A stretch of DNA of 64,000 bases from a virus (lineage: Duplodnaviria > Heunggongvirae > Uroviricota > Caudoviricetes): IMG/VR virus record IMGVR_UViG_3300028048_001599. The stretch is one strand, 5' to 3'. Made by a program: the position numbers and the translations under genes. The notes under the pieces are model-generated. The model did not search any database and was not told the origin of the DNA. It saw nothing but the letters and a program-made list of their open reading frames with translations. Each line of letters begins with the position of its first letter. The first letter of the stretch is position 1. Positions 34 to 64,000 of the stretch are shown here, in pieces.

Positions 34-1596
34 ATGAAGGAGTATAGTGGTATGAAATTCTATCAGAATCAGTATTATCAGGGAACATTAACAGACCATC
101 AGTGTGATACACTGTTAAGATTACTTGATGAGGAAAAAGTGGACACGCTGAAGCATATTATTAGAAATGCAACAGTAAGTGAAATTGACGAAATAAAAGA
201 TGCATACAAGAATGGAAGTGTACCTCCTGTTATAGAAAACAGGGGTACACTGACTGATGCGCAGACTTTAGGTGTAGCTTTTATGTACTACTCACGTAGG
301 TGTTTAGTTGGTGACCAAGTTGGTTTAGGTAAGACTGTAGAAAGTGCAGGACTTATCAATATAATCAAGCAAGATGGGGTAAAAAATATATTGTTTTTAA
401 CAGAAAAAACAATAGTACCTCAGATAAGGGATAAACTAATCAAGTTCACGGGTGAATATGTAGATATGATTCCGTCTGCAACTAAACCTCAGATTGAGAA
501 GTTCATGAAAAGACATCCTGACGGATTTACATGTCCGATTGTAGGTAGTCACTCACTTTTAGGTTGTGCTGAGTTTTTGTATTATTTAAGTAATCACCCA
601 CTCGGTTGTTTAATAATAGACGAGGGGTATATAATTAAGAACACAACTCACACTTATTACAAGAGTGCAAACGAATTGTCAAAACAGTGTGATTATTTCT
701 ATATACTAAATGCAACTCCACTTGAAACATCGGCAAGGGATTTATACAATCAGTTAAAACTGATTGACAAACCATTCATGCCAACTGTAGCGGAGTTTGA
801 GAGAGCTTTTTGTATAAAAAGACCGAAACGATACGGTTTTGGGTTTGAGGTAGCAGGGTATAAAAACTGTGAAGCTTTCAAGCGTGCTATATCACTTCGG
901 TATATTGCAAGAACAAGAGATGATATATCGGCAGTATTTGCAGATAATGATACAAGAATAATTTATGTTCCAATGTCAAGTGTTCAAAAACATCTCGAGT
1001 CTAAAACATCACTGCATCAAATGGTTGCAGACTATCCCACAGGTGTTGATTTTACTGTGGAGTATACTCCTGAAACAACTGGTAAACTTGCTGCAACCGT
1101 GGAACTTTGTAAAAGAACTAATGGTAAGGTATTGATTTATAGTAGATTTGTACAATGTCAAGCGGGTATCAAGGAGGCACTTGAAAAAGTAGGTAAAAAA
1201 CCTGTAATTTTGAATGGTCAGTGTTCAAGTTCTGAGCGTGACATAATAATTAAGGACTTTAATGTTGGTACATATGATGTAGTAATAACGAACTTAGCAA
1301 GGGGTATTGACCTACAGGATTGTGATACTTGTATTCTTTACACACTTGACCCGAATCCGCAGAATATGGTTCAGACCTTTGGACGTTTAACACGTGATAT
1401 TGACGTTGTAGGTAAAACTCTCTACTTCTTAATATCTGAGGGTCGGGAAAAAAGATTGTTTGAAACTTCATCGAAGGTTCGTGCTACAGCGAGTATGAAG
1501 TTTACTAAAGTTGGTACTAATTTAGTTCTTGAAGCTATTGCTAATGCTGGTAATTCATATCAAGCTCTTGAAACTGATGCAAGTGATATGACATAA
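34..1596 (+). CDS. SNF2/SF2-family helicase
   Basis: GDQVGLGKT motif I, IIDEG motif II, NATP motif III, C-terminal QTFGRLTR motif VI. Confidence 0.85.
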   Translation: MKEYSGMKFYQNQYYQGTLTDHQCDTLLRLLDEEKVDTLKHIIRNATVSEIDEIKDAYKNGSVPPVIENRGTLTDAQTLGVAFMYYSRRCLVGDQVGLGKTVESAGLINIIKQDGVKNILFLTEKTIVPQIRDKLIKFTGEYVDMIPSATKPQIEKFMKRHPDGFTCPIVGSHSLLGCAEFLYYLSNHPLGCLIIDEGYIIKNTTHTYYKSANELSKQCDYFYILNATPLETSARDLYNQLKLIDKPFMPTVAEFERAFCIKRPKRYGFGFEVAGYKNCEAFKRAISLRYIARTRDDISAVFADNDTRIIYVPMSSVQKHLESKTSLHQMVADYPTGVDFTVEYTPETTGKLAATVELCKRTNGKVLIYSRFVQCQAGIKEALEKVGKKPVILNGQCSSSERDIIIKDFNVGTYDVVITNLARGIDLQDCDTCILYTLDPNPQNMVQTFGRLTRDIDVVGKTLYFLISEGREKRLFETSSKVRATASMKFTKVGTNLVLEAIANAGNSYQALETDASDMT

Positions 1597-1657
1597 AATG
1601 ATAAAAAATTTAATAAAAATATGATATAATAAAGGACTTTTAAAAAGTGGTGATGTT

Positions 1658-1984
1658 ATGCAATATAGAGATATTGCTAAGGAAGCTATAAAAGAATATA
1701 CACACTTCCTTGTAGATAGTGGTTATGATTTCCCTGATTATGACGTGTATAAAGATGTATTTTATACGGTACTTTCTGATATTATGAGAGTATCTTATGA
1801 AGATAAGGTATACAATGAGAAAATCAAGGAAATAGAAAAGGGGTATCGAAAAATTCTTAAAGAAAAAGACCTATTAAGACATTTAAAACACAATAAGGAA
1901 ATAACGTTTAACATTGTAAAAGCATTATTTGATATTGTGTTTAGAGACCTGGAAGAGAGTGGGGGATTACATAATGATATGTGA
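1658..1984 (+). CDS. hypothetical protein
   Basis: 108-aa ORF, co-directional, GGTGA RBS-like upstream. Confidence 0.65.
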   Translation: MQYRDIAKEAIKEYTHFLVDSGYDFPDYDVYKDVFYTVLSDIMRVSYEDKVYNEKIKEIEKGYRKILKEKDLLRHLKHNKEITFNIVKALFDIVFRDLEESGGLHNDM

Positions 1985-3630: not shown

Positions 3631-3691
3631 TTTCATACTTAAATGTTTATTGTTATGAAATTTTTTAAGATGAAAGGTGTGTTTGATTATA

Positions 3692-5674
3692 ATGGAGTAT
3701 AATGATAGTTCTATAAAGGCACTTAAAGGTGCGGATAGAGTACGTCTACGTCCGGCCGTAATTTTTGGTTCAGATGATATCAGGGGTGCATTTCACACTG
3801 TTACAGAGATTCTCGGTAACTCACTTGATGAGGCAAGAGCGGGGTACGGTAATAAAATTTATGTAACTTACCATAGTGATAAATCTATTACAATCAGAGA
3901 TTATGGTCGTGGCGTACCTATGGGTTGGAATGAAGCAGAACAGCAATATAACTGGCATCTGGTTTTCAATGAAATGTACGCAGGTGGAAAATACGGGGTA
4001 GACGATATTTACAAATATTCCGTAGGACTTAACGGTCTTGGCGCAGCATCTGTTCAGTATGTTTCTGAATGGTTTGATGTTGAATCATACACTTCTGATA
4101 AAATTTCTAAAATATCATTCAAGAAGGGTAATCCGGCAAGTGAACTTGACGTTGTTGATAACACAACAGGTGAAACTGGTACTAAGATAACTTGGAAAGT
4201 TGATACTGAGGTATTCAGTAATACTGATTTTACAGAGCAGATGTTTTCTGAGCTGTGCGAATTACAGGCTCATATAGCAGGTATCATTATCTACTTCAAA
4301 GACGAGGTGCATGGGGTAGAACATACCTTCGAGGGTAAAGGACTTCTTGAATATCTTAGAAGTAAGGTTGGTAACAATGAAGTTGAATCTTTCGAGGTTC
4401 ACAACGAGTCTGCAGGTGTTGATGAAAAGGGCAAGGCATTTAAGGCTGAATGTGACATCGTTCTTATGGTTACAGATGAAATGAAATCAAAAAGAATGTA
4501 TTTTCATAATACAGCTATAATGCGTAACCCTAATGGTTATCATCATCTGGCATTTGATGCAGCACTCTCTCAGTTCTTTAAGGAACTTGGTAATCAGATG
4601 GGGTTAAAAATCCTGCCGAGGGACTACGAAGATTATATTTCATGTATTGTATCGACTTATTCAAATACAACAAGTTTTTACAATCAGACAAAAGATGCTG
4701 TATCTTCTCAGTTTATATATGATTTGATTTATAATACAGTTAAGCGTACTCTTGATATTGAATACGCAAAAAGTAATGAATCAATCAAAGCTTTTGTAAA
4801 CAATGTTACTGTCGCTGCACAAGCAAGAGTTAAGGCAAAACAGTTAGAACAGGCAGAACGTCAGGTTAAAAAGAATATTACAGGTAAACGTCACAAGGCT
4901 GAAAAATTTAAGGATTGTGCTGAAAAAGACCCATCAAAACGTGAATTGTATATCGTTGAGGGTGATTCAGCACTTGGTGCTTGTAAGCAGGCACGTGATT
5001 CAAAGTTTCAGGCTCTCATTCCAGTTCAGGGTAAAATCTTGAATTGTCTTAAAGCAAGTATGGAAAAGATACTTGAAAATAAGGTAATTACCGACCTGAC
5101 TTCAACGATAGGTACAGGGGTAGACCTTGGTACATCAAATCTTTTTGATATATCGAAACTGCAGTTTGATAAAATCATCATATGTACTGATGCAGACGTC
5201 GATGGTTTTCAGATACGTGTTCTTCTTTATGCGATGTTCTATCGTCTAATGCCAGACTTACTCAGAACAGGGCATGTGTATATTGCTGATACACCTTTGT
5301 TTGAGCTTGAAACGAATAAGGGTAGTTATTTTGCTTATACTGCCGAAGAAAAAGATAAACTTCTCAAGGAATTACCTACAAAGGGTATTCGTATATCACA
5401 GATAAATCGTTCTAAAGGTCTGGGTGAAAACACAGCACCGATGATGAGACAGACAACAATGTTGCCTGAAACTCGTAAACTTATTCCTTTGAATATTGAT
5501 ATTCGCGACGAAATAGTACGTGAGCTTAGTATTGTACTGTTTGGTAATGACTACAATAATCAGCGTAAGGAATTTGTAAAAGAGCTGTTGGGGGTAAATC
5601 TTGCAGAACTTGTTGATGAGATTGAAACTTTGACTGAGGCTGATAGGAACATGGAAGAAATTGAAGTTAATTAA
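3692..5674 (+). CDS. gyrB: type IIA DNA topoisomerase subunit B (GyrB/ParE)
   Basis: VRLRP..., GHKL motifs (EILGNSLDE, DYGRGVP, GLNGLGA), TOPRIM EGDSA, GKILN, DADVDG, SKGLGE; ATG 3692 after GAAAGGTG. Confidence 0.95.
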   Translation: MEYNDSSIKALKGADRVRLRPAVIFGSDDIRGAFHTVTEILGNSLDEARAGYGNKIYVTYHSDKSITIRDYGRGVPMGWNEAEQQYNWHLVFNEMYAGGKYGVDDIYKYSVGLNGLGAASVQYVSEWFDVESYTSDKISKISFKKGNPASELDVVDNTTGETGTKITWKVDTEVFSNTDFTEQMFSELCELQAHIAGIIIYFKDEVHGVEHTFEGKGLLEYLRSKVGNNEVESFEVHNESAGVDEKGKAFKAECDIVLMVTDEMKSKRMYFHNTAIMRNPNGYHHLAFDAALSQFFKELGNQMGLKILPRDYEDYISCIVSTYSNTTSFYNQTKDAVSSQFIYDLIYNTVKRTLDIEYAKSNESIKAFVNNVTVAAQARVKAKQLEQAERQVKKNITGKRHKAEKFKDCAEKDPSKRELYIVEGDSALGACKQARDSKFQALIPVQGKILNCLKASMEKILENKVITDLTSTIGTGVDLGTSNLFDISKLQFDKIIICTDADVDGFQIRVLLYAMFYRLMPDLLRTGHVYIADTPLFELETNKGSYFAYTAEEKDKLLKELPTKGIRISQINRSKGLGENTAPMMRQTTMLPETRKLIPLNIDIRDEIVRELSIVLFGNDYNNQRKEFVKELLGVNLAELVDEIETLTEADRNMEEIEVN

Positions 5675-8487: not shown

Positions 8488-8531
8488 CTTTTATATTTGA
8501 TAGTATAAGATTAGTGAAAGGTGGTATAATC

Positions 8532-10616
8532 GTGTCAAAAGTAAATAGTGATATGAATGAAAATGTACCAAGTGGTCTGAGAACATTAATAAAGGGGTAT
8601 GCTGATTATGCATCTGAGGTAGTACTTGAGCGTGCTATTCCGGCTATAGATGGTCTTAAACCATCTCAGCGTAGAATCCTTTATACAATGTATAAGAATA
8701 AAAATACAAGACTTACTAAGTCAGCAAATGTTGTCGGTGAGGTAATGAAACTTCATCCTCATGGTGACATGTCAATCTATGATACACTTGTAAGACTTAC
8801 GGATGATGGTAGATATATGAATGTACCATATCTTACAGGTAAGGGTAGTTTCAGTAAGGTATATTTTACAGAGAAAGCTGCGGCATCGAGATATACAGAG
8901 TGTATGTTATCACCTCAGTCAAAGTTACTGTTTGGTGAAATGAATGGTATCGACATGATTCCGTCATACGATAACAAGTTTAATGAGCCACTTTGTTTAC
9001 CTGTAGCATTTCCTACTATTCTCGCTAATCCAACACAGGGTATCGCAGTTGGTATGGCATCAAATATTCCTGCTTATAACATGATTGAACTCAATAATGC
9101 AGTTATAGAGCTTATAGAAACAGGAACAATCAGTAAGCCACTTGCTCCTGATTATGCAACAGGTAGTGTTTACATCAGAGATGATGACGAGCTTGCAAAG
9201 ATAATGAAAAAGGGTAAGGGTCGAATAAAACTCAGGGGTAAATGGCACGTTGAGGGTAAGTCAATAGTTATTGATGAAGTTCCTTACTATACTAATGTAG
9301 ACGCTATTGGTAAGGTAATGAATGAAGACCCGAATGTTCTTGATGTACGTGATGAATCTGACTTTAATGGTCTTAGACTTGTTATTGAATGTCGTTCAAA
9401 GGCAAGAATGGAAGAAGTACTCGTAGTTCTTCTTAGAGATACTCAGATGCAGATGACAATATCATCTAATATCTCTGTCATCATCAATAATAAACCAAGA
9501 ACTCTGGGTATTGTAGAACTTCTCAAGGAATGGGTAAAATTCAGGAAAAAGGTTCTGCAGAAAAAGTATAGACTTGACCTCACTTCTGTTCAATATGAAA
9601 TTCAGCGTTATGCTTTTCTTCTTAGGTTACTTAGTAATAAGGAAGCATTTGATAATTATATAGAAAACGTCAAAAAATCAGAGGTTGACGGTAGGACATT
9701 TCTTCGTAGCTTTGATAAGACAACCACTGACGATGCTATCGACTGGGTCATGGGATTATCCTTCAAATCTATTTCAAACATTGGTCAGAAACAAAAGCAC
9801 CTTAATGACCTGTATGAACAGGAAAAACAGATTAGGAATAATCTTAATAATCTTGATAGGGTTATTTGTGAACAGCTTCGTGATATCAACGCTAAGTACG
9901 GTACTCCGCGTGCAACCGAGATAGGTACTGACGATTATGTGTTTAACAAGGCTGAAAAAGAGAAACCTGCACCGACTAAGTGTTACATCCAAATAAAGAA
10001 TAAATTTATTTATAAATATCAGACTTATGTTAATGGTGCTATAGAGTGTATGTCAGATGATTATATTCTTGTACTTGACTCACAGAGTAGATTGTTGCGT
10101 ATCAAAGTAGAGGAAGTAGAAAATTATAGGGGTACTCCAGGAACTTATCTTCCTGTGTATGCAGGTGTTCCCGATGACTTTGAGGTTATAGATTATCACC
10201 TTGAAGAGGACGCAAAGACATCATACTTCTATAAGGACGGTTATGTATCAGTTGTAGACTGGGGTAAATCAATGAATAACAGACGTAAGATGCGTGTTCT
10301 TCAGAGAGCTACGTCACAGTTTATAAATGATGCTATAGCATATCTCCCTGAAACTCAGTTTGTTGTATGTTACACAGCACAGGGTAAGTTCGGAATAGTA
10401 CGTAATGAGTTTATGGAAAAGTCAGCAACAGCAAGAACAAAGCTCATAGGGGTAGACACTAATGACTATGTGAAGATTGTTTGTGGTGCTACTATGGAAG
10501 ACCTTTTGAAGTTGCTACCTAACTTTAATAACTATATGGGTAAGTGTAAGAAGATTCAGAAAGGCGACACACTTAATATTGATTACTTTAAGGAGATGTT
10601 GAAGCGTGTACGTTAA
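8532..10616 (+). CDS. gyrA: type IIA DNA topoisomerase subunit A (GyrA/ParC-like)
   Basis: RAIPAIDGLKPSQRR, HPHGD, catalytic A.SRY, GIAVGMASNIP; GTG 8532 after GAAAGGTGG. Confidence 0.92.
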   Translation: MSKVNSDMNENVPSGLRTLIKGYADYASEVVLERAIPAIDGLKPSQRRILYTMYKNKNTRLTKSANVVGEVMKLHPHGDMSIYDTLVRLTDDGRYMNVPYLTGKGSFSKVYFTEKAAASRYTECMLSPQSKLLFGEMNGIDMIPSYDNKFNEPLCLPVAFPTILANPTQGIAVGMASNIPAYNMIELNNAVIELIETGTISKPLAPDYATGSVYIRDDDELAKIMKKGKGRIKLRGKWHVEGKSIVIDEVPYYTNVDAIGKVMNEDPNVLDVRDESDFNGLRLVIECRSKARMEEVLVVLLRDTQMQMTISSNISVIINNKPRTLGIVELLKEWVKFRKKVLQKKYRLDLTSVQYEIQRYAFLLRLLSNKEAFDNYIENVKKSEVDGRTFLRSFDKTTTDDAIDWVMGLSFKSISNIGQKQKHLNDLYEQEKQIRNNLNNLDRVICEQLRDINAKYGTPRATEIGTDDYVFNKAEKEKPAPTKCYIQIKNKFIYKYQTYVNGAIECMSDDYILVLDSQSRLLRIKVEEVENYRGTPGTYLPVYAGVPDDFEVIDYHLEEDAKTSYFYKDGYVSVVDWGKSMNNRRKMRVLQRATSQFINDAIAYLPETQFVVCYTAQGKFGIVRNEFMEKSATARTKLIGVDTNDYVKIVCGATMEDLLKLLPNFNNYMGKCKKIQKGDTLNIDYFKEMLKRVR

Positions 10617-11655: not shown

Positions 11656-11724
11656 CTTATATTAATACTTTATGATTTAGTGGTATCTACTCTTTGTGGA
11701 AATAATAAAAAGGAGACAAGCATT

Positions 11725-13179
11725 ATGTTTGTAGAACTGAGTGGAAAAATATTTGCTGGTATCTATTCAAAGAACAACGAAAATGGGGTTCTGAATAGAC
11801 GTAGACAAGACCTTATAACTAACTTTGCGGAGAATATATTCAAGGACGAGTATTTTGTATATTATTCAATTTTGAAAAGGTTTCCGAAGTTGGGTACTGT
11901 TGATGAAAAGTTTTTAGCTTTGTACCTTAATACAAATAAGGCAACATTTTTAAAAGAACGTAGCATAGATTTAGGGAAATATGCAGGGGTAGCCGATAGT
12001 TATAATGAGTTCTGCATAACTTGTATAAATACATATAAGGAATGTATGAATCATCCTGTAATTTCTGACGAGGAGTTCATTCTTGCTATTGAACAGTACA
12101 GGATTGAATACATAAATGAACAGTCAATTATTCTTATGCAGGACTCAGCTGCTATTATGACTGATGGTATGCCTTACGGTAGACGTGTTCTTAATGGTTT
12201 TCATGATATGCAGGCTTATATGAAAAGAGGACTACAAACACTTGAAAATCTCGATAATGGTTCATCACATATAGGTATTATAACTTATGGTGATAATGAA
12301 CCCGAAGACATGTCGAATAATCTTAAAACTATATGTGAATTTGGTATTGAACCACTGGACAAAGCAACAGGGGGTATGACTGAGGGTGATATGATTTCCA
12401 TTCTTGGTGTTGCTAAGGGTGGTAAATCAAGGTTTATGACCTATCTTGTGCATAGAGCACTTATGCAGGGTATCAATTGTGTTGTTTGGTCAGTCGAAAA
12501 CGGGGTAAAAGGTTGGGAAGCACTTTTAAGAGCAAGACATTTTGATTATAAGTATAATTCAACAAATGATATTACGTCACATTGTTTTATATCAGATAAT
12601 GAAATTCGTAAAGGTACATTATCTGGGGTACGTAAAGATAAGGAGGCGGCTTCTTGGCTTGACCTTAGAACGAACAAAGAGTATGGCAAACTTACAGTAA
12701 TTGATGAGCCTTTTGATATTAATTCATACATCGAAACGCTCGACACTGCGGTTAAACAGGGTTCAGCTCAGCTTGTAGCTGTTGACTATCTTCAGTTGAT
12801 TGGCGACAGTAATAATTCACGTAACCGTAATGAAGTTATTGCTGAAGCATATCAGAAATCTTTGAGGTACCTTAAGGCAAATAAACTTGTAGGTCTTTTT
12901 CCTGCACAGATTAAACAAACCTCTGTATCGAGTCTATCTTCATTAAAGACTGAGGAACTTGGTTCTGTTGAAACAAGAGATATTGCTGGTGCATCCTATG
13001 AAGTTGTAAAAACACCGGATATTAATATAGCTCTTATAGGCTCTGTTGAGGATATTAAGGTTGGACATCTTGCACTTGTGTCAATGCCATCAAGAAACTC
13101 AGCTCCGTTTGCACCAACCGATTTAAGTGTAGATTTTGGTGCTTGTAATTATATGGTAATGAATAAAGATAGGGGATAA
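11725..13179 (+). CDS. DnaB-like (SF4) replicative helicase
   Basis: Walker A GVAKGGKS, WSVEN, VAVDYLQL Walker B, PAQ motif; ATG 11725 after AAGGAG. Confidence 0.8.
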   Translation: MFVELSGKIFAGIYSKNNENGVLNRRRQDLITNFAENIFKDEYFVYYSILKRFPKLGTVDEKFLALYLNTNKATFLKERSIDLGKYAGVADSYNEFCITCINTYKECMNHPVISDEEFILAIEQYRIEYINEQSIILMQDSAAIMTDGMPYGRRVLNGFHDMQAYMKRGLQTLENLDNGSSHIGIITYGDNEPEDMSNNLKTICEFGIEPLDKATGGMTEGDMISILGVAKGGKSRFMTYLVHRALMQGINCVVWSVENGVKGWEALLRARHFDYKYNSTNDITSHCFISDNEIRKGTLSGVRKDKEAASWLDLRTNKEYGKLTVIDEPFDINSYIETLDTAVKQGSAQLVAVDYLQLIGDSNNSRNRNEVIAEAYQKSLRYLKANKLVGLFPAQIKQTSVSSLSSLKTEELGSVETRDIAGASYEVVKTPDINIALIGSVEDIKVGHLALVSMPSRNSAPFAPTDLSVDFGACNYMVMNKDRG

Positions 13180-15517: not shown

Positions 15518-15961
15518 GTGGTGATAAAAATGAGTAACGAAGAAGTAAAAGTGATGCTTACCAAAATTCAGGTAATAATATTGGTAATTACAGTGGTAAT
15601 GTTAGTAGCAAATAAGGTTGTTGCTAATACATATGATGGTTATGAAACAGTAAAATACGAAATCACAGGGGTAAGAGAAGTTAACAATTACCCCTATAGT
15701 ACAGATGGTTACAGTAGAAATTTCTACACAACAGTAAAGTATTCGGATAAACAAGGGGTAGAATACACAAAGACATTTAACAAGAGATTACAAGATGATT
15801 TCCAAATCAGATGTGATTCTACTGATTATAGCAATTATTTAACATCGGATATGGTAAAAACAAGTAAGGCACAATCTATAATAATGTCTATACTTTGTGT
15901 GTTGTTTAGTTTGATGGTTTGTGTAGCTTATTTTCCGTTTAGAGGTGTAAAACGTAAATGA
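15518..15961 (+). CDS. two-TM membrane protein
   Basis: N- and C-terminal hydrophobic helices; true start may be ATG 15530. Confidence 0.6.
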   Translation: MVIKMSNEEVKVMLTKIQVIILVITVVMLVANKVVANTYDGYETVKYEITGVREVNNYPYSTDGYSRNFYTTVKYSDKQGVEYTKTFNKRLQDDFQIRCDSTDYSNYLTSDMVKTSKAQSIIMSILCVLFSLMVCVAYFPFRGVKRK

Positions 15962-43774: not shown

Positions 43775-43853
43775 CTTTATATTAAAATATGACATTGATT
43801 GTCAGTAATATAAAGCCAATCAGACATTGTTTTATTCTGAAAGGGGTAGTAAA

Positions 43854-45571: not shown

Positions 45572-45663
45572 CTACAAATTGGATAGATGCACCATTTTGA
45601 TTATGCTATATAAGTAATATTGTTGGAACACATAAAATAGACAATGAGGGACTGGGTGATTAA

Positions 45664-51052: not shown

Positions 51053-51087
51053 TCTATATCATATTTAATATAGTATAATACCTAAAT

Positions 51088-51125
51088 GAGGGCGGTGGAT
51101 GAGGATTCGTCCACCGCTCATTTTG
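51088..51125 (+). terminator. rho-independent terminator
   Basis: GAGGGCGGTGGATGA / TCGTCCACCGCTC plus T run. Confidence 0.65.
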
Positions 51126-51145
51126 TTATAAAGTGGTGATAAAAG

Positions 51146-53321: not shown

Positions 53322-56300
53322 ATGAATTTAAGAAATAAGAGGTTTTTAAGCGGTTTACTTTCAGCGTCTATCATAATAACTAGTTTACCTTTAATGAATG
53401 TAGGGGTAACTGCAGCGACTCCGAATAGTGTTAATATTAGTGTTCCTGAGAAGTTATCTAAAACGGACGACCCTGACTACAATCCTACTTTTAATTTTGA
53501 GTCAAGTGAGTGGAAAACAAAATATGACACAATAGTGGCTGCATCATCTGACATTCATGACATAGGTAGATTACCTAATCTTGAAGAGTTTCGGTCATTA
53601 TATGGATATACTAGTCCTGATAGAATGACACTTACTAGGTTTAGACAAACATATGGTGAGGGTTCTGAATTTATAGAACCATCAGAAGTTATTACTATTT
53701 ATATTGCTAATGAAACCGAACTTGATTTGATGTCAAATCTTGTAAATAATACAGCAGATTCAGAAACAGCAACAGAACAAGCTTATTATTCTACTTGTGG
53801 TTATAAGTTGATGTCTGAAATAGATTATACTGGTACAACTTATCAACCTATCGGTACGTATGATTATCCGTTTAATGGTACTTTTGACGGTGATGGCTAT
53901 GAATTAGTTGATGTGAAACTAATTGATGACGTTGAAAGTAGAGCAATATACAGTGGTTACGACTACTTAGGTATATTTGGTTATACAGGCACATCGGCAG
54001 TAATAAGAAATCTTGGGGTATCAGCCATGACTCTTACTGCAAATTATGTACTTGGTGGTGACGCTGCTTTCTTATGTGCAAGAAATAATGGTACTATTGA
54101 AAACTGTTATGTAAATGGTAAAACTACATCCAAACTTACAATTTCTAACTCAACAGCCGGTGGTATCTGTGGTGAAAACTATGGTACAATCAGGGGCTGT
54201 TATGCTGATGCTTGGGTTGATGTTGCTACGCATAGTGGAACATATTCTGAACCTCAGCCGATAGCAACTGTAAACCACACATCGGACGGTGCTGTTGTAG
54301 AAAATTGTTACTACATTCGTCAAGCATATAAGGACTTGGTAGTTCCTAAGGATATTATGGTAACATCACCATTTTACAAGACATTAGCAGATGATAACAA
54401 TGATGGAACAATAATGGGATGGAAATATACGGGAGACATTTCTCAGATTAATGGTACTCCATTAAATTATAAGACATTTGTAGAGAATATGTCATCACAG
54501 ACAGGGGTAAGTTTCGGAAATGGAAAAGTGACTGGTACCACTAAAAATATGTGGGCGTACGGTCATTTGTATACTTTGAATGATTTGAGACAGACCGTTG
54601 GTTCTTGTGTCGACTTTGATTTACAATATATAACTCCTGGTATATCTTCTTCTATTACAGGTAATTCAGGTAAGGGTTGTGTTCTGGAGATTAGAACAAA
54701 TGATGAATGGAATACATATTGTAAATTAGTAAACAAAACAATGTCCAATGAAACTGATGAAGAACAAGCATTTTGGGCTTCAATGTGTGTGACATTTAAG
54801 GGTAGTGAAACAATAACTTTGAATGGTAAGACAGTTGAGGTTTTTGACCTATATCAAGATGATGAACCACTTGGTACTGAAACTTATCCTTTCACTGGTT
54901 ATTTAAACTACAATAGAAACACATTAATTAGACTTCATCTTGAAAATAGACATTCAGGGGTAGTAACACCTGTAATCGGTTATAACAAAGGTAATATCAT
55001 ATTTACAAATATGATAATTGATGGTAATGATATATCAGGATATATGGAAAAATCCATACTATGTGGCATAAATGATGGTTATTTGAGAGGTGACATTCGA
55101 GATAACAGTTATAGGGCTACGAATGACAGTCAGGGGGTAAACATATACAGTGATAATCCGAATTATTCTACATTAGCCAATAAAGACTATGATGGTATAA
55201 CAATAGTTGGAATAATGAGAAGTGGTACAATAGGGGTGAATATGGGGTTTGCATACCAATGGTATTCTGCCGATGATACTACAGTTCCTGCTGGTTATAA
55301 CTATTTACCTCTTACTTTGGTAAAAGAAAGTGGCACTATAGATTCTGGTAAGTATGTAAAGTATATGTCTGATGAAACATTTCAGGGGTATGGTTCAAAG
55401 ACAACTAATAATACCAATTTAATTACTGATATTAATGCAAATTCTACATCTGTGTCAACTTTTAATGGTCAGGAATTTAAGACCTATGCTAATATGACTA
55501 TATCTGCATATCCTTCTCTTGTAGCACCTGAAAAAGATGCAGATGGTAATTACTTGATAAGAAATGATAGAAACCTTGTATGGCTTATAAGGTATGCATC
55601 TGGTGAAAATGCAAAGCTCATGAACACTATCGACATGAGCGACTATACATTTAAAGGTACTCCATTCACAGGTAGTTTTACATTAGATGGTACACTAACA
55701 GATACTTCCGATATATGTAACAACATAGATTTGGGGGTAACAAAGTGCTATGGTATTATAAACTTGCAGGTATATGATACAAAGCTTTCTTCAAATGTTA
55801 TAAATTGGAACAACGTATACTTTATTGGTGGTACTTTCACATTAGGTGACCAGATGGGTACTAAATTTACAGGTGTCAAATCTCACTGGTTAGGTGAAAC
55901 TGTTTCAAATATTCATTTATCTAATGATTATATAGTTAATAGGGCTAATGGTAGTAGTACATGGTGGTCACCTACACAAACAGCTACAGGTTGTTCAGTA
56001 TCAGGTAGAATTATAATAAACAGAACAAACTATTCATGGAACTATCCTCTAAGTTTCACAGCTGAGGATTGTGTAACCTATGAGACCATAGTTTACAATG
56101 TGGATTCTTCTAATGTTACGGCTTTGGCAGATACAGTTAATCATTCTATTTGTAGACAGTCGGCAATAAAGACTGGTTCATTTACTTCTACTACATATAT
56201 GCATAATGGCGGTGGTATAGGTAGAACAGTTAGAAACTGTTTAGCCGATTGGACATATAATCAAAAAGGTAATGATAAAGCACCTATTAAAATATTTTCT

Positions 56301-59300
56301 TGTGATGGTATAGCAACAAATTGTACATTTACTGGTACTTATATAGCAGATGAAAATAGACAAAATACTAATGTATCTTTATCTAATATAGCAGTTAATT
56401 TAGTTTGTACACCAGAAAGTATAATAGATGGAAATTTTGCACTAACTTCTGCAAACAGTGAATATGTAATATTTAGAGGTACTCTTAAGGCATATGTGCC
56501 ATATAATTTAAAGTTTATTGGAAATTCTACTAAAAATGCTTATATAGATGGTAATATAGATTTATATAAAATGACAGAAGATAGTTATTATACTAATATA
56601 TCAAATACTAATGAACTTAAAACTAGATTTGGCTTTACTAAATTAAATGAAGCAGAAAATGGTTTAAATATTTTTAGTTATGGTACTAGAGATAGTATAT
56701 TCAATGGTAATATTAATTTTATAGATTTTGATGACACTTGTGCTTTTACTAAATATAATATAAGAATGTTTGAATCAAATTTATATGGAACATGCATAAA
56801 TTATTCTAATATTAATATAAATAGTAAAATTATGTTAAATTCTTTGACTATATTTGGTAATGGTTCTGGTAGTGGTAATTTAAATACAAAAGCATATAAT
56901 TATGGAAATATTAATATTGGATCAAATACTTATTTTAAAAATATAAATGTTATAGGAAGTTCTTATGGTATTAGTAAAAATTATGGAAATGTTAACGTTA
57001 CTGATGGAAATAATTTATCTATAATATTAATGTCAGGTTCAACCTATGGACAAACTGGCGAAAAATATAAAAATTATGGCAATATTACTGTAAATAAGAC
57101 TGGATTAGCTGGTGGTATACAAAATGTTTATGCTTTAAATAAAGTATACGCTGGTATAAATTATGGAGACATTTTAGTAGATTTTCATAATAATAGAAAT
57201 TATAATACAAACAATAGTGATATAAGAGATTGTAATATATGTGGTAATAATGCTAGTATTAATGTTGGTAATATTGAAGTAAAGAATTATACTTCTACTG
57301 ATAATTCTTATATGGATAATATTAATGTATATGGCGGTGGTACTGAAAACTATGGTAGTATAAAAGTACATGATATAAATTCAATAAATGGAACAAATGT
57401 TACTATACAGTCTTTAACTAATCCATCTTATTTTTCTACTCATTGGTATGGCATATCTAAATGTAAAGTAGAAATAAATAATATAAATATTAAAAATAAT
57501 CTGTCATATAGTGGAGCGCATAGATATGTTAGGTCTACAGATCAATTTGACCCAGAATATTATATAAGTAACGTAGATTTAGACATAAATAATATAACTT
57601 GCCAAAGATGTGTAATAAGAGGCGGTTATGTTACTAGTAGTTATTATTCAGAAAGTGGTACTTATGAACCACTCATAAAAGTATCAATAAATAGTAATAT
57701 TATAAATGATATTGATATTAATAATGTAACTACTAATAAAGATTTTAGATATTATGGAGTAACTGATTGGTATTGTACGAGTGATCATGGTTATAGATAT
57801 AATAGTTCTACTATTGATATTAATAATTGTAATTTTAATACATTGCTTTATTCTGGAGTATGTAATAAAGAAAGTTCATATCATGATGCCTGGATAAATA
57901 ATGCTTCGCTTAATATAGATAATACTGTAATTACTAAAGATAGTATTATAAATGGTGTAGCATTAAATTATAATAATAGTTATAATAGAACTACTTCAAG
58001 TAATGAATATAAAGCTATATCAAATGCATATTCATTTGGACCTATGAATATTAATATTACTGGTGCTCCAATAACTATAAATGGTATAAGTAACGGTGTT
58101 AAAATAAATGCTGAAGCAACCAATAAAAATTTAATTGTATTTAATAGTAGTGATATTCATGTAACAAGTGACAATAATATAAAAATAAACGGCATATTTT
58201 CAAATGATAATTATAAAGTATCAGACTCAGTAATATATAATGCAATAAATTGTGGTAATTTAACTGCTACGCAGACTGGAGATGGAATAGTACAAATATG
58301 TGGAATAGCAGATAAGGTAGCACGTCTTGAAAGTGTTGAGAACTTTGGTAATATATCGACTAACGCATCAAATGGTGAGGTATATGCTATATGTGGTGCT
58401 GTAACACAGGCTGCCATAGGTTGGGTTAATTACGGTGATGTATCAGCACCTAATCTAGGAGCGTATAAGACAGTATCAACAATAAAAGCTGACAGTGCAT
58501 CCGCTAATTTGACCTATGGTATTAATTACGGGGTATTTGACCATGCATTAAGCAGTAATGTTGGTGAAACATTGTTCTTGGTTGACCTATCAGGTAACTG
58601 GAGGACAATTCCTTATGGTGAAAATACATTCTCTACTGACTCTACTGTATCTGGTGTTACTACAAAGCAGGCTAAGGGGTATAATGATTTCGATAGTGTT
58701 ATAAATAACTATGATGCAGTAGGCACAGACGATGTAATACCAACGCACATTACATATGAAGATTTTATAAGTCCTGACTTTGGTATTCGTTATTGTAATT
58801 ATATTACAACAAACTATATAACCTCAACAACAAAACAGAATTACAATAGTGAAAATCTTTTTGAATATGTAACGGTAGCAAAGGCTACTGGGCGACTTCG
58901 TGAAGAAATTGACGAGCGTGATGGTGCTGGCGGTTACGTATTATGCTGTGTAACTGCTGATGGTAAAAACTTGATGGGTAAAGAGTTAGAGTCAAGATTA
59001 TATGCTGAAAATACTATAAAGGATGTTAATAGGTGTAGTTGGTGGTCTGATTATGAGGTTCACGATGTAGGGTTTAACTCATATATAGACGGTACTCTCA
59101 AACAAAGAGACCAGGGGTCATTAGCTGAGTTGTTCTCAATGTCAATTACCTCAACTGGTACTTATGAAACAACAGAAGGAAATCAACAAAATATAAGAAA
59201 TATTTCAATGTTGAATCCTTTCCAAGCACCTGTAAAAGTTAATAATACATATGCGAATGATAACATTGTAACAATAGTTGATTTATATGTTTTAGCTAAC

Positions 59301-61856
59301 ACTTATAAGAATATTGAGAATACTGATATAAGTTGGGATGTAAATGTTACAGGCGTTGCTGCACAGAAACTAAGATTGTACAATAATCCACTTGTATACT
59401 CTGACCATACAACATTTAAGGCTGGTATAGAGTCAGTGAGTTCAAATCTTAGTACAACAAATATTTCCGGTGATACTGCAACGACATTGCACTTAGGTGA
59501 GATAGGTGAGACAACTTATGCTATTATAGGTTATCTTGAATCAGAGGATGGTACATTCTATGACATTCTTGCCGTAAGGTTGCACTGTACCACAACTCAA
59601 CCTATGGGTTGGGTAACAGGTTTCTCATACGCCTATAAAACAAAGGATGACTTAGGTAAAACTCTTGATTATACTCAGGCATTTAACGGTTCAAGAATGT
59701 TCTATGCTACCTCAAAGGGTGCTGAGAAGTTTGATACTGATGGTTATACATTATCGAAAGGTCAGGAAGAGGGGTATAGTTACCCAATATACACAATGAC
59801 AGTTCCAATGATTCATTCAACTAATGGTACGAGGGGATATTCTGATGATGGTATTCAAAATACTGGTAATGTTACATTAAATTTCGATGTTCAAAACATT
59901 AAGAGTTACAGGTCTTTGATATCTGGAGATAATGCTGAGGAGTTTGAAGCTTCTTCTTCTACTCCGACAACAGGTAGTGCTTCTGCCGATGGTACTGTTA
60001 TAATTAAAGATAATACTTCATATGTTAAACGTTACACTAATGGTGATGGTGCTATATATTATAAAAAGTCTGATGGTACTACACAAATTTCTATAAAGTA
60101 TAACGAGAACAATCCATTCTACCATGGCGGAAATAAAAAAATAGAAGTATTTGGGGTATCTGAAGACAATGACGATGAAATCAAATTGTTTGAAATCAGA
60201 CTTGCTAAGACATATAGCTTTGAGAACTATGTAAGAAATAGCTCATTAACAAACAGATATTGGTTTGGTAATCAGGATAATTCACCTGATGGTGAAACAA
60301 CTGAGACACTTGATATTCCTAGTTTCCATGAAAATTATTTTAGTAGAAGTGGTGCTAAAATATCGTCACTGGGTGAAGTTACTGACGAGCACATAGACTT
60401 TTCAGAGTGTCGCAAAAGGGGTTCATATACAACATATCCTGATTATATGACACACTATAAAACCATAAAGGCAGAGGATGGCTCAGAAGCTACTTATACT
60501 GAAAAGATAAACTTCGTAGATTTCAATATACTTGATTATACAGGTTTAGGTGTATCGGATTCATATTGTTACGAAAAAGACGGGATAGTAGTAATAAAGG
60601 ACGAATCAGAGCGAATGTATTTTCACCGAGTAGTAAATAGTGCAAAGACAGCAAGTATAGCTTCATATCGTTATGGTAAGTTTATAGTGGAAAAGTTTGA
60701 TATATTTGTAGGCGGTACTTATATGAGAACTGTTGATACATTGAAATCGGCTAATAATGCAGGTCAAGGTGTATATGACTCACAGTGGGGTTTAACAGTT
60801 TATGTCGAAAGCTACGACTCAAATTACGCAGTAAGGCGTATATGTATTGCAAAAGATGATACAGTAGCAAAAGCTGATTTACCTGACGAGCCTATCTCAA
60901 TTAAACCATATATTAAGTATGAATTACCTGATGGGCAGACTGTAAAGATAGAATGTGCAGAAACAACGTTTGTAAAGTCATTAAACCCTGATAGACAGCT
61001 GTTAAGTGTTAAGACACAAAAAGTGTTGACATCAACATATATTTCAGAGTTTCCTGACGCTGAGGCTGTAAATGTTGATTTTAATGGTAACAATGTAGTA
61101 TATGGGGTAGATTACACAACACTTCCTAATTTGTATATTACAGATGTCGTAGAGCCTAACTGTACTAATTCAAATGTATCGTATAGTATTTCGCCTTGTG
61201 CAACACTTGAACAAAAAGTTGGTGGTACTTGGACTAAGGTATTCACTGCAGCATCAGGTGCTAATGTATACACAACAAATTATACGTTCACTTCCGATGG
61301 TTTGGGAGCGGGGTATGTGTATGAATATCGAATAGTTGCTCAAGATTATACTACTGAGGACCCTGCTAAAATGACACATATAACTTATTTCACACATTTT
61401 ATAGGGGCAGCTACAAGAAATAAAACGATATCAATAGATTTTAAGGAAGACGATGTTGAAACAATGGCACTATATCATGAGATATTAAGTACTGATGGTA
61501 ACTTATCAATTCAACTTAAAAATATGAATGTAGACCAAATAAAGATGCAACAGACAAAGTTCTATGTTGATGATACGTCACTTGAAAGTAATTACTATAA
61601 CATATCTCAAGGTGACTATGCAATTCTTGTAAATTTGCCCGATGGATATACTGCTAAAGTAAAAATCAGAGGTGGTTCAACAGAGGGTTACCTTACTGAA
61701 AACTCGAATGTAAGGGGTAAACGATTAAGACTACCGTTTGCAAATTCACAAAATATAAAGCTTGAGGTAACACTTGAAAGAACGGATATCGCAACACATT
61801 GGGGTATTCAGCAACGAAGAACTTCATATAAGTCTGTACGTGAAAATAAGATTTAA
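53322..61856 (+). CDS. giant (2844-aa) secreted surface protein with GLUG/beta-helix repeats
   Basis: signal peptide; PIGT...PFNGTFDG; GGICG.N.GTI..CY; long Asn/Ile-rich beta-helix-like middle. Confidence 0.8.
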   Translation: MNLRNKRFLSGLLSASIIITSLPLMNVGVTAATPNSVNISVPEKLSKTDDPDYNPTFNFESSEWKTKYDTIVAASSDIHDIGRLPNLEEFRSLYGYTSPDRMTLTRFRQTYGEGSEFIEPSEVITIYIANETELDLMSNLVNNTADSETATEQAYYSTCGYKLMSEIDYTGTTYQPIGTYDYPFNGTFDGDGYELVDVKLIDDVESRAIYSGYDYLGIFGYTGTSAVIRNLGVSAMTLTANYVLGGDAAFLCARNNGTIENCYVNGKTTSKLTISNSTAGGICGENYGTIRGCYADAWVDVATHSGTYSEPQPIATVNHTSDGAVVENCYYIRQAYKDLVVPKDIMVTSPFYKTLADDNNDGTIMGWKYTGDISQINGTPLNYKTFVENMSSQTGVSFGNGKVTGTTKNMWAYGHLYTLNDLRQTVGSCVDFDLQYITPGISSSITGNSGKGCVLEIRTNDEWNTYCKLVNKTMSNETDEEQAFWASMCVTFKGSETITLNGKTVEVFDLYQDDEPLGTETYPFTGYLNYNRNTLIRLHLENRHSGVVTPVIGYNKGNIIFTNMIIDGNDISGYMEKSILCGINDGYLRGDIRDNSYRATNDSQGVNIYSDNPNYSTLANKDYDGITIVGIMRSGTIGVNMGFAYQWYSADDTTVPAGYNYLPLTLVKESGTIDSGKYVKYMSDETFQGYGSKTTNNTNLITDINANSTSVSTFNGQEFKTYANMTISAYPSLVAPEKDADGNYLIRNDRNLVWLIRYASGENAKLMNTIDMSDYTFKGTPFTGSFTLDGTLTDTSDICNNIDLGVTKCYGIINLQVYDTKLSSNVINWNNVYFIGGTFTLGDQMGTKFTGVKSHWLGETVSNIHLSNDYIVNRANGSSTWWSPTQTATGCSVSGRIIINRTNYSWNYPLSFTAEDCVTYETIVYNVDSSNVTALADTVNHSICRQSAIKTGSFTSTTYMHNGGGIGRTVRNCLADWTYNQKGNDKAPIKIFSCDGIATNCTFTGTYIADENRQNTNVSLSNIAVNLVCTPESIIDGNFALTSANSEYVIFRGTLKAYVPYNLKFIGNSTKNAYIDGNIDLYKMTEDSYYTNISNTNELKTRFGFTKLNEAENGLNIFSYGTRDSIFNGNINFIDFDDTCAFTKYNIRMFESNLYGTCINYSNININSKIMLNSLTIFGNGSGSGNLNTKAYNYGNINIGSNTYFKNINVIGSSYGISKNYGNVNVTDGNNLSIILMSGSTYGQTGEKYKNYGNITVNKTGLAGGIQNVYALNKVYAGINYGDILVDFHNNRNYNTNNSDIRDCNICGNNASINVGNIEVKNYTSTDNSYMDNINVYGGGTENYGSIKVHDINSINGTNVTIQSLTNPSYFSTHWYGISKCKVEINNINIKNNLSYSGAHRYVRSTDQFDPEYYISNVDLDINNITCQRCVIRGGYVTSSYYSESGTYEPLIKVSINSNIINDIDINNVTTNKDFRYYGVTDWYCTSDHGYRYNSSTIDINNCNFNTLLYSGVCNKESSYHDAWINNASLNIDNTVITKDSIINGVALNYNNSYNRTTSSNEYKAISNAYSFGPMNINITGAPITINGISNGVKINAEATNKNLIVFNSSDIHVTSDNNIKINGIFSNDNYKVSDSVIYNAINCGNLTATQTGDGIVQICGIADKVARLESVENFGNISTNASNGEVYAICGAVTQAAIGWVNYGDVSAPNLGAYKTVSTIKADSASANLTYGINYGVFDHALSSNVGETLFLVDLSGNWRTIPYGENTFSTDSTVSGVTTKQAKGYNDFDSVINNYDAVGTDDVIPTHITYEDFISPDFGIRYCNYITTNYITSTTKQNYNSENLFEYVTVAKATGRLREEIDERDGAGGYVLCCVTADGKNLMGKELESRLYAENTIKDVNRCSWWSDYEVHDVGFNSYIDGTLKQRDQGSLAELFSMSITSTGTYETTEGNQQNIRNISMLNPFQAPVKVNNTYANDNIVTIVDLYVLANTYKNIENTDISWDVNVTGVAAQKLRLYNNPLVYSDHTTFKAGIESVSSNLSTTNISGDTATTLHLGEIGETTYAIIGYLESEDGTFYDILAVRLHCTTTQPMGWVTGFSYAYKTKDDLGKTLDYTQAFNGSRMFYATSKGAEKFDTDGYTLSKGQEEGYSYPIYTMTVPMIHSTNGTRGYSDDGIQNTGNVTLNFDVQNIKSYRSLISGDNAEEFEASSSTPTTGSASADGTVIIKDNTSYVKRYTNGDGAIYYKKSDGTTQISIKYNENNPFYHGGNKKIEVFGVSEDNDDEIKLFEIRLAKTYSFENYVRNSSLTNRYWFGNQDNSPDGETTETLDIPSFHENYFSRSGAKISSLGEVTDEHIDFSECRKRGSYTTYPDYMTHYKTIKAEDGSEATYTEKINFVDFNILDYTGLGVSDSYCYEKDGIVVIKDESERMYFHRVVNSAKTASIASYRYGKFIVEKFDIFVGGTYMRTVDTLKSANNAGQGVYDSQWGLTVYVESYDSNYAVRRICIAKDDTVAKADLPDEPISIKPYIKYELPDGQTVKIECAETTFVKSLNPDRQLLSVKTQKVLTSTYISEFPDAEAVNVDFNGNNVVYGVDYTTLPNLYITDVVEPNCTNSNVSYSISPCATLEQKVGGTWTKVFTAASGANVYTTNYTFTSDGLGAGYVYEYRIVAQDYTTEDPAKMTHITYFTHFIGAATRNKTISIDFKEDDVETMALYHEILSTDGNLSIQLKNMNVDQIKMQQTKFYVDDTSLESNYYNISQGDYAILVNLPDGYTAKVKIRGGSTEGYLTENSNVRGKRLRLPFANSQNIKLEVTLERTDIATHWGIQQRRTSYKSVRENKI

Positions 61857-61860: not shown

Positions 61861-61899
61861 AAAAGGTCTATTATCTAATGATAGTAGACCTTTTTACTT
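61861..61899 (+). terminator. rho-independent terminator
   Basis: AAAAGGTCTATTATC / GATAGTAGACCTTTT. Confidence 0.75.
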
Positions 61900-62086
61900 T
61901 TTAATAAAAATTTAAAAATGGGATAAAAAAATTATACTATCGTTTATAATATTATATGAAAATGATTTAATCATTTTCGGTGTAAGTGGTTCAGGGGCAG
62001 GACTACTTTACAAAAAATCAAGTTTCGGCTTGATTTAAAGTTGAACGTTGAACTTTAAATTTAAGAAAGAAAGGTTGCGATATGTA

Positions 62087-64000
62087 ATGAATAAGAAAGT
62101 GCAAAAAGCATTGTCACTTATTATTTCTGCTGCAACTATCGGAGGTATGGGAGCAAGCGCAGCTCTTGTAGCCGATGCAACTACAGCAGTAGAAGTGACT
62201 CCGAAGTCAGGTGTTTATGTAGCATCTGATGGCACAATAACAGATAAAGCTGGTAACGTATTTAAGCTTATTAACTCAGAAACAAATGAGGTAGCTTTAG
62301 TAAGAATTGGTGACCCATCAAATGGTGGAAAAACAACAAGTTGGGGTAAAAATTACGTTGTGCCTGATGTAGTAACAGGTGGGGGTAAAACTTATACGGT
62401 TGTTCAAGTAGGTACTGGTTCTTCTATAGCTCCTAAGAATGGTTCTAAGGTAGTAAGTGCTGGTTATACAAGTATAACACTTCCTAATTCTATTAAGACT
62501 GTTTCTTCAAAGGCATTTGACACAAATGTTCTTGGAGAAAATGCAACAATTACTCTTGGTTCAGACAAGAATTTTAAGGGTCTTTATTTTGAATCATTTG
62601 CTGCTGGTGCTTTTGGTAACTATGATACGAGTAAGCTTACAATTCAGACCTATAAGTTGTATGTAAGTACTGCTTATAATTCAACTTATGGTTATATTCG
62701 TTCACTTCCCACTAATTGTACGTTTAAGTCTTATTTCTTGAGTGCTTCATTCTTTATGCTTGACGCTCTGAAAGCAGCGGATACGTCATTTAGCAATTTA
62801 AAATGGGAACCTGTTGAGGCTATCAACTTTGCAGCAGGTGTAAAGACAGATGCACAGGGGTGTAAGTTCTATTATGGTATTTCTCCTATGGGTAATAAAT
62901 TGATGTCTGAAACACAACTTCCACAGGTATATGTAAGAGCTACAGGTACTGCTGGTGATTTCACAGTACGTACACTATCTGGTGCAACGCTTAATAAGTA
63001 TTTTAAGAAAACAGCAGATTTTGATGATTTTTCAATAACTCTTACACCGAGGGATAATAAAATTGCACAGGGTTCACAGACTGTATCTGGTCTTAATAAA
63101 GCCATTGATATAACTCCACAAAGTATTACGGGTAGTGATGATAAAACATCTTTTGTATATCTACCAACTACTGTAAAATTTAGTTCAGGTTATGCTACAG
63201 ATGGATACAAAATATCCACTGCTAACTACTGTAACTCAGCTATTATTGTTAAGCAGGCTAAGGGTTATGTATTTGTTCCTTGGAGTTACATGACTTGGAC
63301 TTATGATAAAAATAAGGCACCTGGAATATCAACTGTGAAAGCTGTTGCCGATACTTCTGCATCTCCGTTATATTCTGGTTCTACTTCAGCTAAGTTCTCT
63401 CTGATAAATGCATCGTTGGCATCTACAGATAAGACTTATATAAATGTTGTGGAATCAGAAGATGGTAAACAAAAAATAAATGTTGTACCTAATGCTGACT
63501 ACTATTATGTTGTAGATTATAAACCAATAGGTACTACTTCTACTAAGTTTGTAACACTTTGGAATGGTATAACACAGGATAAGAAGGGGTATATTATGAC
63601 ATCTGACGATGTTAAATCTGCTAGTGTACCTGCTAATTACGCTTCACTTGTAAGAGTTCGTGCTTATTCTGCTAAGTCAACTTCTGCTTTAGTTGATAGT
63701 TCATATACAATAATTCATCCTGAATCACTTATGGTTCAGCACACAGAATATGATAGTAGCGGAGCATCTAAAACTGTATATAACACATTGATGAAGCCTG
63801 TTGTTAGAGTAAATAAGTCTTTCAGGGTTGTATATTTTGCAAAAGATATAAGGGTTAACAATGTTGTTGACACAAATCAAAAGTATTATATCACCATTTA
63901 TAAGTCAAATAATGGTACAGCTCCTAAAGTGCTTAAAGATAAGGAGTTAATGACTGCTCATAGTGGTTATTATAATCATGCTTATTACTATGATGCAAAG
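62087..64000 (+). CDS. secreted surface protein with BspA-like LRR, truncated by the window end
   Basis: ATG 62087 after GAAAGG; MNKKVQKALSLII... signal peptide; VVPDVV...YTVVQVG...SITLPNSIKTVSSKAF; appears open to 64000. Confidence 0.7.
   Translation, partial: MNKKVQKALSLIISAATIGGMGASAALVADATTAVEVTPKSGVYVASDGTITDKAGNVFKLINSETNEVALVRIGDPSNGGKTTSWGKNYVVPDVVTGGGKTYTVVQVGTGSSIAPKNGSKVVSAGYTSITLPNSIKTVSSKAFDTNVLGENATITLGSDKNFKGLYFESFAAGAFGNYDTSKLTIQTYKLYVSTAYNSTYGYIRSLPTNCTFKSYFLSASFFMLDALKAADTSFSNLKWEPVEAINFAAGVKTDAQGCKFYYGISPMGNKLMSETQLPQVYVRATGTAGDFTVRTLSGATLNKYFKKTADFDDFSITLTPRDNKIAQGSQTVSGLNKAIDITPQSITGSDDKTSFVYLPTTVKFSSGYATDGYKISTANYCNSAIIVKQAKGYVFVPWSYMTWTYDKNKAPGISTVKAVADTSASPLYSGSTSAKFSLINASLASTDKTYINVVESEDGKQKINVVPNADYYYVVDYKPIGTTSTKFVTLWNGITQDKKGYIMTSDDVKSASVPANYASLVRVRAYSAKSTSALVDSSYTIIHPESLMVQHTEYDSSGASKTVYNTLMKPVVRVNKSFRVVYFAKDIRVNNVVDTNQKYYITIYKSNNGTAPKVLKDKELMTAHSGYYNHAYYYDAK

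Follow-up and report, generated by a model that had tools for sequence, protein, structure and literature searches.

A strictly polar, evenly spaced GGGGTA word owned by pXO16-related mobile elements, and its possible role as a priming site

The window considered here is the whole 64-kb stretch (64,000 nucleotides) of IMG/VR record IMGVR_UViG_3300028048_001599, along which a short word, GGGGTA, recurs on one strand from end to end. All of its 66 long open reading frames (ORFs), 15 tRNAs and one transfer-messenger RNA (tmRNA) lie on the + strand. Toward its start stand a SNF2/ResIII-type helicase (34–1596, +), which is syntenic with the DEAD/DEAH helicase of the Bacillus plasmid pXO16, the B subunit of a type II topoisomerase (GyrB/ParE-like; 3677–5674, +), the corresponding A subunit (8514–10616, +), and a DnaB-like replicative helicase (11680–13179, +; Pfam DnaB_C), which serves as the marker protein of the element family. 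The AlphaFold model of this last protein predicts an all-helical N-domain joined to a RecA core, consistent with a DnaB-type enzyme, and by this predicted helical domain a primase fusion of the gp4 type was ruled out. The window also encodes NrdD, a Ro60 homolog and large Ig/LRR/GLUG surface proteins. The Ro60 homolog (TROVE and vWA; 43827–45311) sits in a 16-kb zone of tRNAs and the tmRNA, where the density of the word is normal.

Exact counting gives 128 copies of GGGGTA on the + strand, spread over positions 242 to 63591 at a mean spacing of 499 bp, against 4 copies of TACCCC, that is, of the word on the − strand. The first bases of the forward words run from 242, 376, 624, 1301, 1840 and 2420 at one end to 62343, 62382 and 63586 at the other. 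In DNA of 34.8% GC this is the top-ranking hexamer, outnumbering all A/T-rich words, and its expected number is 12.8 on base composition and 30 under an order-2 Markov model. All single-base variants are 2.4 to 40 times rarer, with GGGGTT, GGGGTG and GGGGTC found 16, 11 and 3 times on the + strand, and the flanks from −12 to +12 hold almost no information, leaving a clean hexamer. Copies occur in every frame of the genes (67 as GGG GTA, 26 as xGG GGT Axx and 15 as xxG GGG TAx), and 20 more fall within the 10.7 kb that are non-coding, where the word is as dense (1 per 535 bp) as it is inside genes (1 per 493 bp). These figures bear out an earlier note on this DNA, which had claimed about 127 forward and about 4 reverse copies, a handful each of GGGGTT, GGGGTG and GGGGTC, and occurrences in all three frames as well as in non-coding regions.

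There are no free, unpaired reverse copies in the window. Each of the four pairs, as the 3′ arm, with a forward copy that makes up the 5′ arm of the same stem; two of these stems are tRNA acceptors and two are hairpins. The copy at 45564–45569 (−) lies in the 3′ acceptor arm of tRNA-Leu(CAA) (45490–45572) and pairs with the forward copy at 45491, and that at 33212–33217 (−) forms the 3′ acceptor end of a tRNA-like gene, paired with the forward copy at 32889. Just after a 1216-aa ORF, a terminator-like hairpin is built from the forward copy at 27783 and the reverse copy at 27797–27802 (−), and the remaining reverse copy (15689–15694, −) closes a hairpin as its 3′ arm, opposite the forward copy at 15668, within the ORF at 15518–15961. 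The earlier note had explained three of the four reverse copies as partner arms; the idea stands, and its number has to be raised to all four. The hairpin at 15668–15694, one of the two non-tRNA places with a reverse word, has a perfect 7-bp stem (GGGGTAA ... TTACCCC) and a 14-nt loop.

The excess of the word survives controls for coding content. In the window genes, where 108 copies are observed, synonymous shuffles leave 21.6 ± 4.1 (maximum 34 in 1000 shuffles; z = 21) and codon-order shuffles leave 14.7, so that enrichment persists against the codon-preserving shuffles as it does against the Markov model, the two comparisons that had been proposed as checks. The codon GGG makes up 13% of glycine codons, yet 67 of the 131 Gly-Val pairs (51%) are written GGG GTA, and Gly-Val pairs are themselves in excess (131 against 95 expected). 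Non-coding DNA taken alone holds 20 copies where 2.1 to 7.1 are expected. The reverse word is not depleted, with one TACCCC seen in genes and 1.8 expected in the shuffles.

A relative of the element is pXO16, a 350-kb conjugative plasmid of Bacillus thuringiensis israelensis (NZ_CP013277.1), which has the same gene order and whose topoisomerase B subunit and helicase are 38.5% and 31% identical to those of the window. The SNF2 helicase, the B and A subunits of topoisomerase II and the DnaB-like helicase form a syntenic module common to the family, with the genes on one strand. Searches with the helicase returned only pXO16 and two weak Bacillus matches among plasmids, one weak match among phages (about 22% identity, Microbacterium phage Magritte) and 125 homologs in metagenomes, ranging from 100% to 30% identity and often lying on contigs of 100–350 kb. 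No phage sequence matched the window by megablast, IMG/VR yielded nothing for an exact 42-mer or for the topoisomerase protein, and an exact protein look-up returned no record; the helicase profile run against species genomes and against IMG/VR found one distant locus each, without the word. Topoisomerase matches from Monoglobus and a Ruminococcus albus “plasmid” were rejected as relatives, being generic GyrB/ParE only and lacking the word. On the Ruminococcus albus 7 plasmid pRUMAL01 (NC_014824.1; locus L003, 12500–18420) TCCGTTAAT is repeated some 75 times at intervals of 22/44 bp, forming an unusually large, iteron-like array that immediately precedes the replication initiator gene and has no relation to GGGGTA.

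Across the whole of pXO16 the word is found 657 times forward and 5 times in reverse. Every 25-kb bin carries 37–54 forward and 0–2 reverse copies, and neither the polarity nor the G/C skew, which is constant at about +0.2, flips anywhere; the earlier note had suggested following the skew along a whole replicon, and on pXO16 the answer is a polarity without a switch. Among the relatives sampled (9 loci located through exact protein look-up, about 30 through a profile scan), about 25 metagenomic ones carry a polar word with a GGGTA core, and in nearly all true relatives the polar word occurs at 1.5–6 per kb with almost no reverse copies. Its exact form varies with lineage around the invariant core GGGTA: GGGGTA itself in most loci, including the high-GC L035, L044 and L049; GGGGTAG in L049, L054, L057, L058 and partly in pXO16; plain GGGTA in L037, L040 and L050 (127/4 in the last); GGGTAT(T) in L028; and GGGTACT or GGGTATC in L055 and L042. 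In L027, a 224-kb contig (ena:ERZ27253191:k141_687392) of 46% GC, the word is GGGTACT (41 forward, 2 reverse, 1.2 expected), with GGGTATT as a second form (22/3). With a G/C skew of −0.03 in this contig, polarity cannot be put down to skew. Genes on the opposite strand were sought in the window, in pXO16 and in 28 relatives, and only antisense ORFs were found; these carry the G-rich skew of the + strand or overlap a + strand gene, and were judged spurious.

Two sets of controls delimit the signal. About 45 loci around distant DnaB homologs, used as a negative control, have no such word. Two other giant plasmids share strain AM65-52 with pXO16; the 235-kb one has 15/21 copies of GGGGTA and the 360-kb one 55/54, compared with 657/5 in pXO16 itself, and the host cell therefore does not select the word. 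The proposal that the signal is specific to the element is thus upheld by its presence in pXO16 and the relatives and its lack of enrichment in the two co-resident plasmids, and the reader of the word is most likely encoded by the element itself.

A Shine-Dalgarno-like role in translation initiation was considered and rejected as the source of the word. Its sixth position is A in 128 cases and G in 11, although GGGGTG would pair better than GGGGTA with the 3′ end of 16S rRNA, and in the window the word precedes only one called start. In pXO16, 20 of 68 genes place the word in the ribosome-binding region (AGGAGGGGTA) and 57 of 77 sites lie elsewhere; this region is a cheap place to put the word.

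Comparison with relatives at increasing distance shows how sites are kept and replaced. Between the window and the relative L113, whose helicase is 93% identical, 11 of 14 sites in three well-conserved genes are in the same place, and third positions of conserved four-fold-type codons in these genes are 53–58% identical. If neutral evolution is assumed to keep each site with a probability of 0.30, approximately 0.55 squared because a word in frame 0 spans two third-codon positions, retention at this level has a binomial P of 2.5e-4. At about 80% amino-acid identity (L022), 12 of 19 window sites are shared, and at 41–63% identity across the four genes compared (L024), 1 of 18. The number of words per gene stays at 4–9 across the relatives compared while positions turn over, new sites arising by synonymous change and by amino-acid change, with Gly-Ile, Gly-Thr or Pro-Val becoming Gly-Val. 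GGGGTA is a selected signal, strictly polar and belonging to the element rather than to its host. The earlier note had placed this selection at the level of DNA; the selection stands, and the DNA level is not separable from a signal in RNA or transcription, all genes being co-oriented. As a separate observation, L113 carries an IS605-type insertion (19904–21263; Y1 transposase with an OrfB/TnpB-like protein) that is absent from the matching place in the window.

The words are also spaced more evenly than chance would place them. The coefficient of variation of the spacing is 0.79 in the window against 0.99 for random placement (P = 0.004), and 0.71 in pXO16 against 1.00 (minimum 0.88 in 3000 trials). 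Both tails are trimmed in pXO16: no gap exceeds 2.1 kb where 12.7 such gaps are expected, the largest being 2071 bp and the smallest maximum gap among the 3000 random placements 2395 bp, and gaps under 100 bp number 31 against 112.6 expected. Spacing and turnover together fit a demand for word density, not for fixed position. A hexamer would arise by chance only every 3–5 kb in AT-rich DNA, and selection would thus have seeded one about every 500 bp and removed long gaps.

The longest word-free stretch of the window (55740–58529, +; 2796 bp, GC 27%) lies inside a 2844-aa ORF (53322–61856), and the second (37838–39596, +; 1765 bp) has a GC of 29%; both look recently acquired. The first forms the low-GC core of its ORF, between flanks of 35% GC, and is probably a recently exchanged segment; no tandem repeat was found in it. 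The 2844-aa ORF has no Pfam or PHROG match. Three compositionally foreign patches had been named as places where the word drops out, and those at 55740–58520 and 38000–39500 (delimited here as 37840–39590) are confirmed; the third, at 50340–51190, is of normal GC, and its 870-bp gap is unremarkable.

What, then, reads the word? A protein that binds double-stranded DNA needs no single orientation of its sites, and the reader is thus expected to be directional or specific for a single strand. The reading we favor, at somewhat less than an even chance, is that GGGGTA is the preferred start site of a sequence-specific primase of the DnaG type, split into two proteins and encoded by the element, acting on the lagging or the transferred strand. 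The zinc-binding protein of such a primase would recognize 5′-GGGGTA-3′, with the 3′ A as the uncopied (“cryptic”) base, and synthesis would begin opposite the T to give a primer pppACCCC. The helicase would move 5′ to 3′ along the + strand, as DnaB-family helicases track the lagging-strand template in this direction. With forks moving in the direction of transcription, the + strand would serve as lagging-strand template; alternatively or in addition, it would be the strand delivered single-stranded to the recipient in conjugation, where it would need repeated priming. Transfer of single-stranded DNA is reported for pXO16 (PMC6199540). The primase reading of the word, the direction of replication and the identity of the transferred strand are all inferred.

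The gene content of the family offers candidates for such an enzyme. In 17 loci, among them pXO16, the neighborhood of the helicase gene includes a gene for a Zn_ribbon_DnaG protein, about 190 aa long and lacking a catalytic domain; in pXO16 this CHC2 zinc-binding protein is encoded at 33700–34272 and the DnaB-like helicase at 24894–26339. A Toprim_2 protein of 266 aa (33.6 bits against a cut-off of 22.1) is encoded at 162086–162886, 128 kb from the zinc-binding gene. It matches phage primase families in their catalytic portion, and the zinc-binding protein matches these same families in their N-terminal portion. To judge from these sequences, the DnaG-type primase of pXO16 appears to be divided between two separate proteins, one that is zinc-binding only and one of the Toprim_2 type.

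The nearest known model is gp4 of phage T7, which primes at 5′-(G/T)(G/T)GTC-3′ to give pppACCC, pppACCA and pppACAC; at 5′-GGGTC-3′ the 3′ C is left uncopied, and the zinc-binding domain sets the specificity. Both systems would share a short exact word, a single-stranded template and a zinc-binding domain travelling with a hexameric helicase, and the family core GGGTA differs from the best T7 site GGGTC only in the uncopied 3′ base. The genes of the element family likewise include those for a zinc-binding protein of the DnaG type, a Toprim protein and a replicative helicase. The differences are equally clear, as the primase of the element would be split into two proteins beside an unfused helicase of the DnaB type, and its word of 6–7 bases has 99% of its copies on one strand, at even spacing and in five- to ten-fold excess, whereas T7 sites are neither polar nor strongly enriched in their own genome.

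Several points weigh against this reading. In the T7 genome GGGTC is found 39/55 times on the two strands, TGGTC 79/62 and GTGTC 43/42, so that primase sites are mildly enriched and unpolar, and a genome-wide primase code is without precedent. An alignment of the 17 zinc-binding proteins shows changes of word type inside a single clade and no residue that consistently follows the type. Within the 64-kb window neither a zinc-binding nor a Toprim primase gene was found, only the helicase. A distant Bacillus velezensis plasmid of 215 kb (NZ_CP076292.1; locus L112, 13224–54576) has co-oriented genes and the pair of DnaB-like helicase and CHC2 zinc-binding protein and has no strongly enriched polar word, with GGGGTA at 21/2 and TGAGGA as its top word at 53/2. 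The model also needs unidirectional replication of a 350-kb circle, which is deduced solely from the absence of a flip in polarity or skew. Finally, with all genes co-oriented, a signal on the non-template strand or in RNA would fit all the sequence facts equally well.

This last point introduces the alternative that the word is read during transcription, on the non-template strand of the bubble or as GGGGUA in long co-oriented transcripts, by an element-encoded processivity, anti-termination or RNA-binding factor that is re-engaged every few hundred bases. Sigma, NusG and RfaH are known to read short single-stranded words. The genes, tRNAs and tmRNA of the window and all genes of pXO16 lie on the strand of the word, which would explain polarity equally, and the even spacing and the equal density in coding and non-coding DNA fit a factor reloading as transcription proceeds. 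GGGGTAG also matches the ops word, GGCGGTAG, at 7 of 8 positions. True ops words, however, are not enriched, with none in the window and 4/1 in pXO16; the strongest NusG/NGN-domain match in pXO16 stays below threshold at 14 bits, and loading of the ops/RfaH type was rejected on both counts. A factor tightly bound to RNA would, moreover, hinder translation at the 20 of 68 pXO16 genes that carry the word in the ribosome-binding region, and no candidate reader was found. We consider this explanation unlikely, though it deserves to be taken seriously. Somewhat less probable again is a direction signal for the transfer or processing of DNA, read by a motor or nuclease of the element such as the FtsK-like coupling ATPase or the UvrD/PcrA-like helicase of pXO16, for which the word would mark “self, this way”. 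A near-absolute polarity without a flip fits one-way transfer from a single origin, and pXO16 does encode an FtsK/SpoIIIE-family ATPase and a UvrD-like helicase. It also transfers single-stranded DNA (PMC6199540) by a conjugation for which no relaxase or oriT is known (PMC6199540, PMC9673590). Two of the systems that the earlier note had offered as analogies, the FtsK-orienting polar sequences and SpoIIIE recognition sequences (KOPS and SRS) on the one hand and Chi on the other, nevertheless fail as models. KOPS and SRS resemble GGGGTA as strictly polar words able to steer a DNA motor, but the latter shows no polarity switch at a terminus, the FtsK gamma domain (PF09397) has no match anywhere in pXO16, whose FtsK-like protein consists of the motor domain only, and no FtsK homolog was found in the window. 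They are octamers every 5–15 kb, whereas GGGGTA is a hexamer every 0.5 kb. Chi likewise is short, polar and over-represented, and runs with the presumed direction of replication; it is set by a host enzyme and is enriched host-wide, whereas GGGGTA occurs in elements from B. thuringiensis and from assorted metagenome assemblies, is about ten times denser and is far stricter in polarity. Selection across the host is contradicted by the co-resident plasmids described above, and a search of pXO16 for a PD-(D/E)XK nuclease of the AddB/RecB type (PDDEXK_1) gave no match, only one UvrD-like helicase being present. Chi and KOPS are 10 to 20 times less dense than GGGGTA, and a depletion of gaps under 100 bp alongside that of long gaps has no obvious meaning for a translocase.

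The remaining explanations fare worse. GGGGTA might be the site of a Type III restriction enzyme or of a methyltransferase acting on one strand, its orientation bias then reflecting restriction or self-marking. Type III enzymes cut only between head-to-head sites, and a genome with all sites in a single orientation is immune, as T7 is to EcoP15I. The likeness to T7 lies in an asymmetric word with all copies in one orientation, and the presence of only 4 reverse copies, all forced by RNA or hairpin stems, would fit such a pressure, as would the SNF2/ResIII-type helicase of the element. T7, however, lost one orientation, whereas here the forward word was gained and evenly spaced while TACCCC stands at its expected level (1 in genes, 1.8 expected), and avoidance cannot yield a five- to ten-fold forward excess with even spacing; we therefore regard this possibility as highly improbable. 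That the word is a functionless by-product of codon use, Gly-Val content, G/C skew or strand-biased mutation, to which we give next to no weight at all, would draw on the G-rich + strand of the window (skew +0.20) and on the 67 of 128 sites that encode Gly-Val. Against it stand the excess over synonymous shuffles (z = 21) with the rare GGG codon in 51% of Gly-Val pairs, the equal density of non-coding DNA, a spacing more even than chance, the retention of sites where synonymous positions are saturated, and the polar 7-mer of the skew-free L027 (41/2), and the by-product reading is refuted. Among known genomic words, the DNA uptake sequences (DUS) of Neisseria and the uptake signal sequences (USS) of the Pasteurellaceae are also short and exact, occur about once per kb in coding and non-coding DNA and are tied to DNA transfer; they are chromosomal transformation signals present on both strands, and differ in this from GGGGTA, which is confined to a single strand and is carried by a mobile element.

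Signals in the form of polar, skewed words are familiar, and GGGGTA is unusual among them in being owned by an element, hexameric, 99% polar and evenly spaced at 0.5 kb. Two reviews of pXO16 state the common orientation of its genes and mention no such word (PMC6199540, PMC9673590), and no paper linking GGGGTA with pXO16 was found in the literature covered, which did not include the 2015 sequence paper of the plasmid. A word that is owned by a mobile element family and drifts between lineages points to a reader that co-evolves with it. Returning to the split primase, and with slightly less confidence than in the start-site reading itself, we suggest that the family writes its own priming code, in which a hexamer-specific primase primes only at GGGGTA (or the variants GGGTATT and GGGTACT) and selection would keep a site roughly every 500 bases along whichever strand undergoes discontinuous copying, at the fork and after single-strand entry. 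Such sites being rare in host DNA, this priming would favor the element's own DNA and, if true, would be the first genome-wide, sequence-coded system for the initiation of Okazaki fragments or of the complementary strand.

Chi and KOPS revealed how recombination enzymes and segregation motors read chromosomes, and GGGGTA is denser, stricter and more evenly spaced than either. The replication and transfer of pXO16 are largely unexplained, and since this conjugative plasmid comes from a commercial strain of Bacillus thuringiensis and can be cultivated, direct testing of the signal is possible. Whatever its reader, the word provides a simple marker for an otherwise unannotated family in metagenomes, and its absence from low-GC patches flags recently acquired DNA inside the members of that family.

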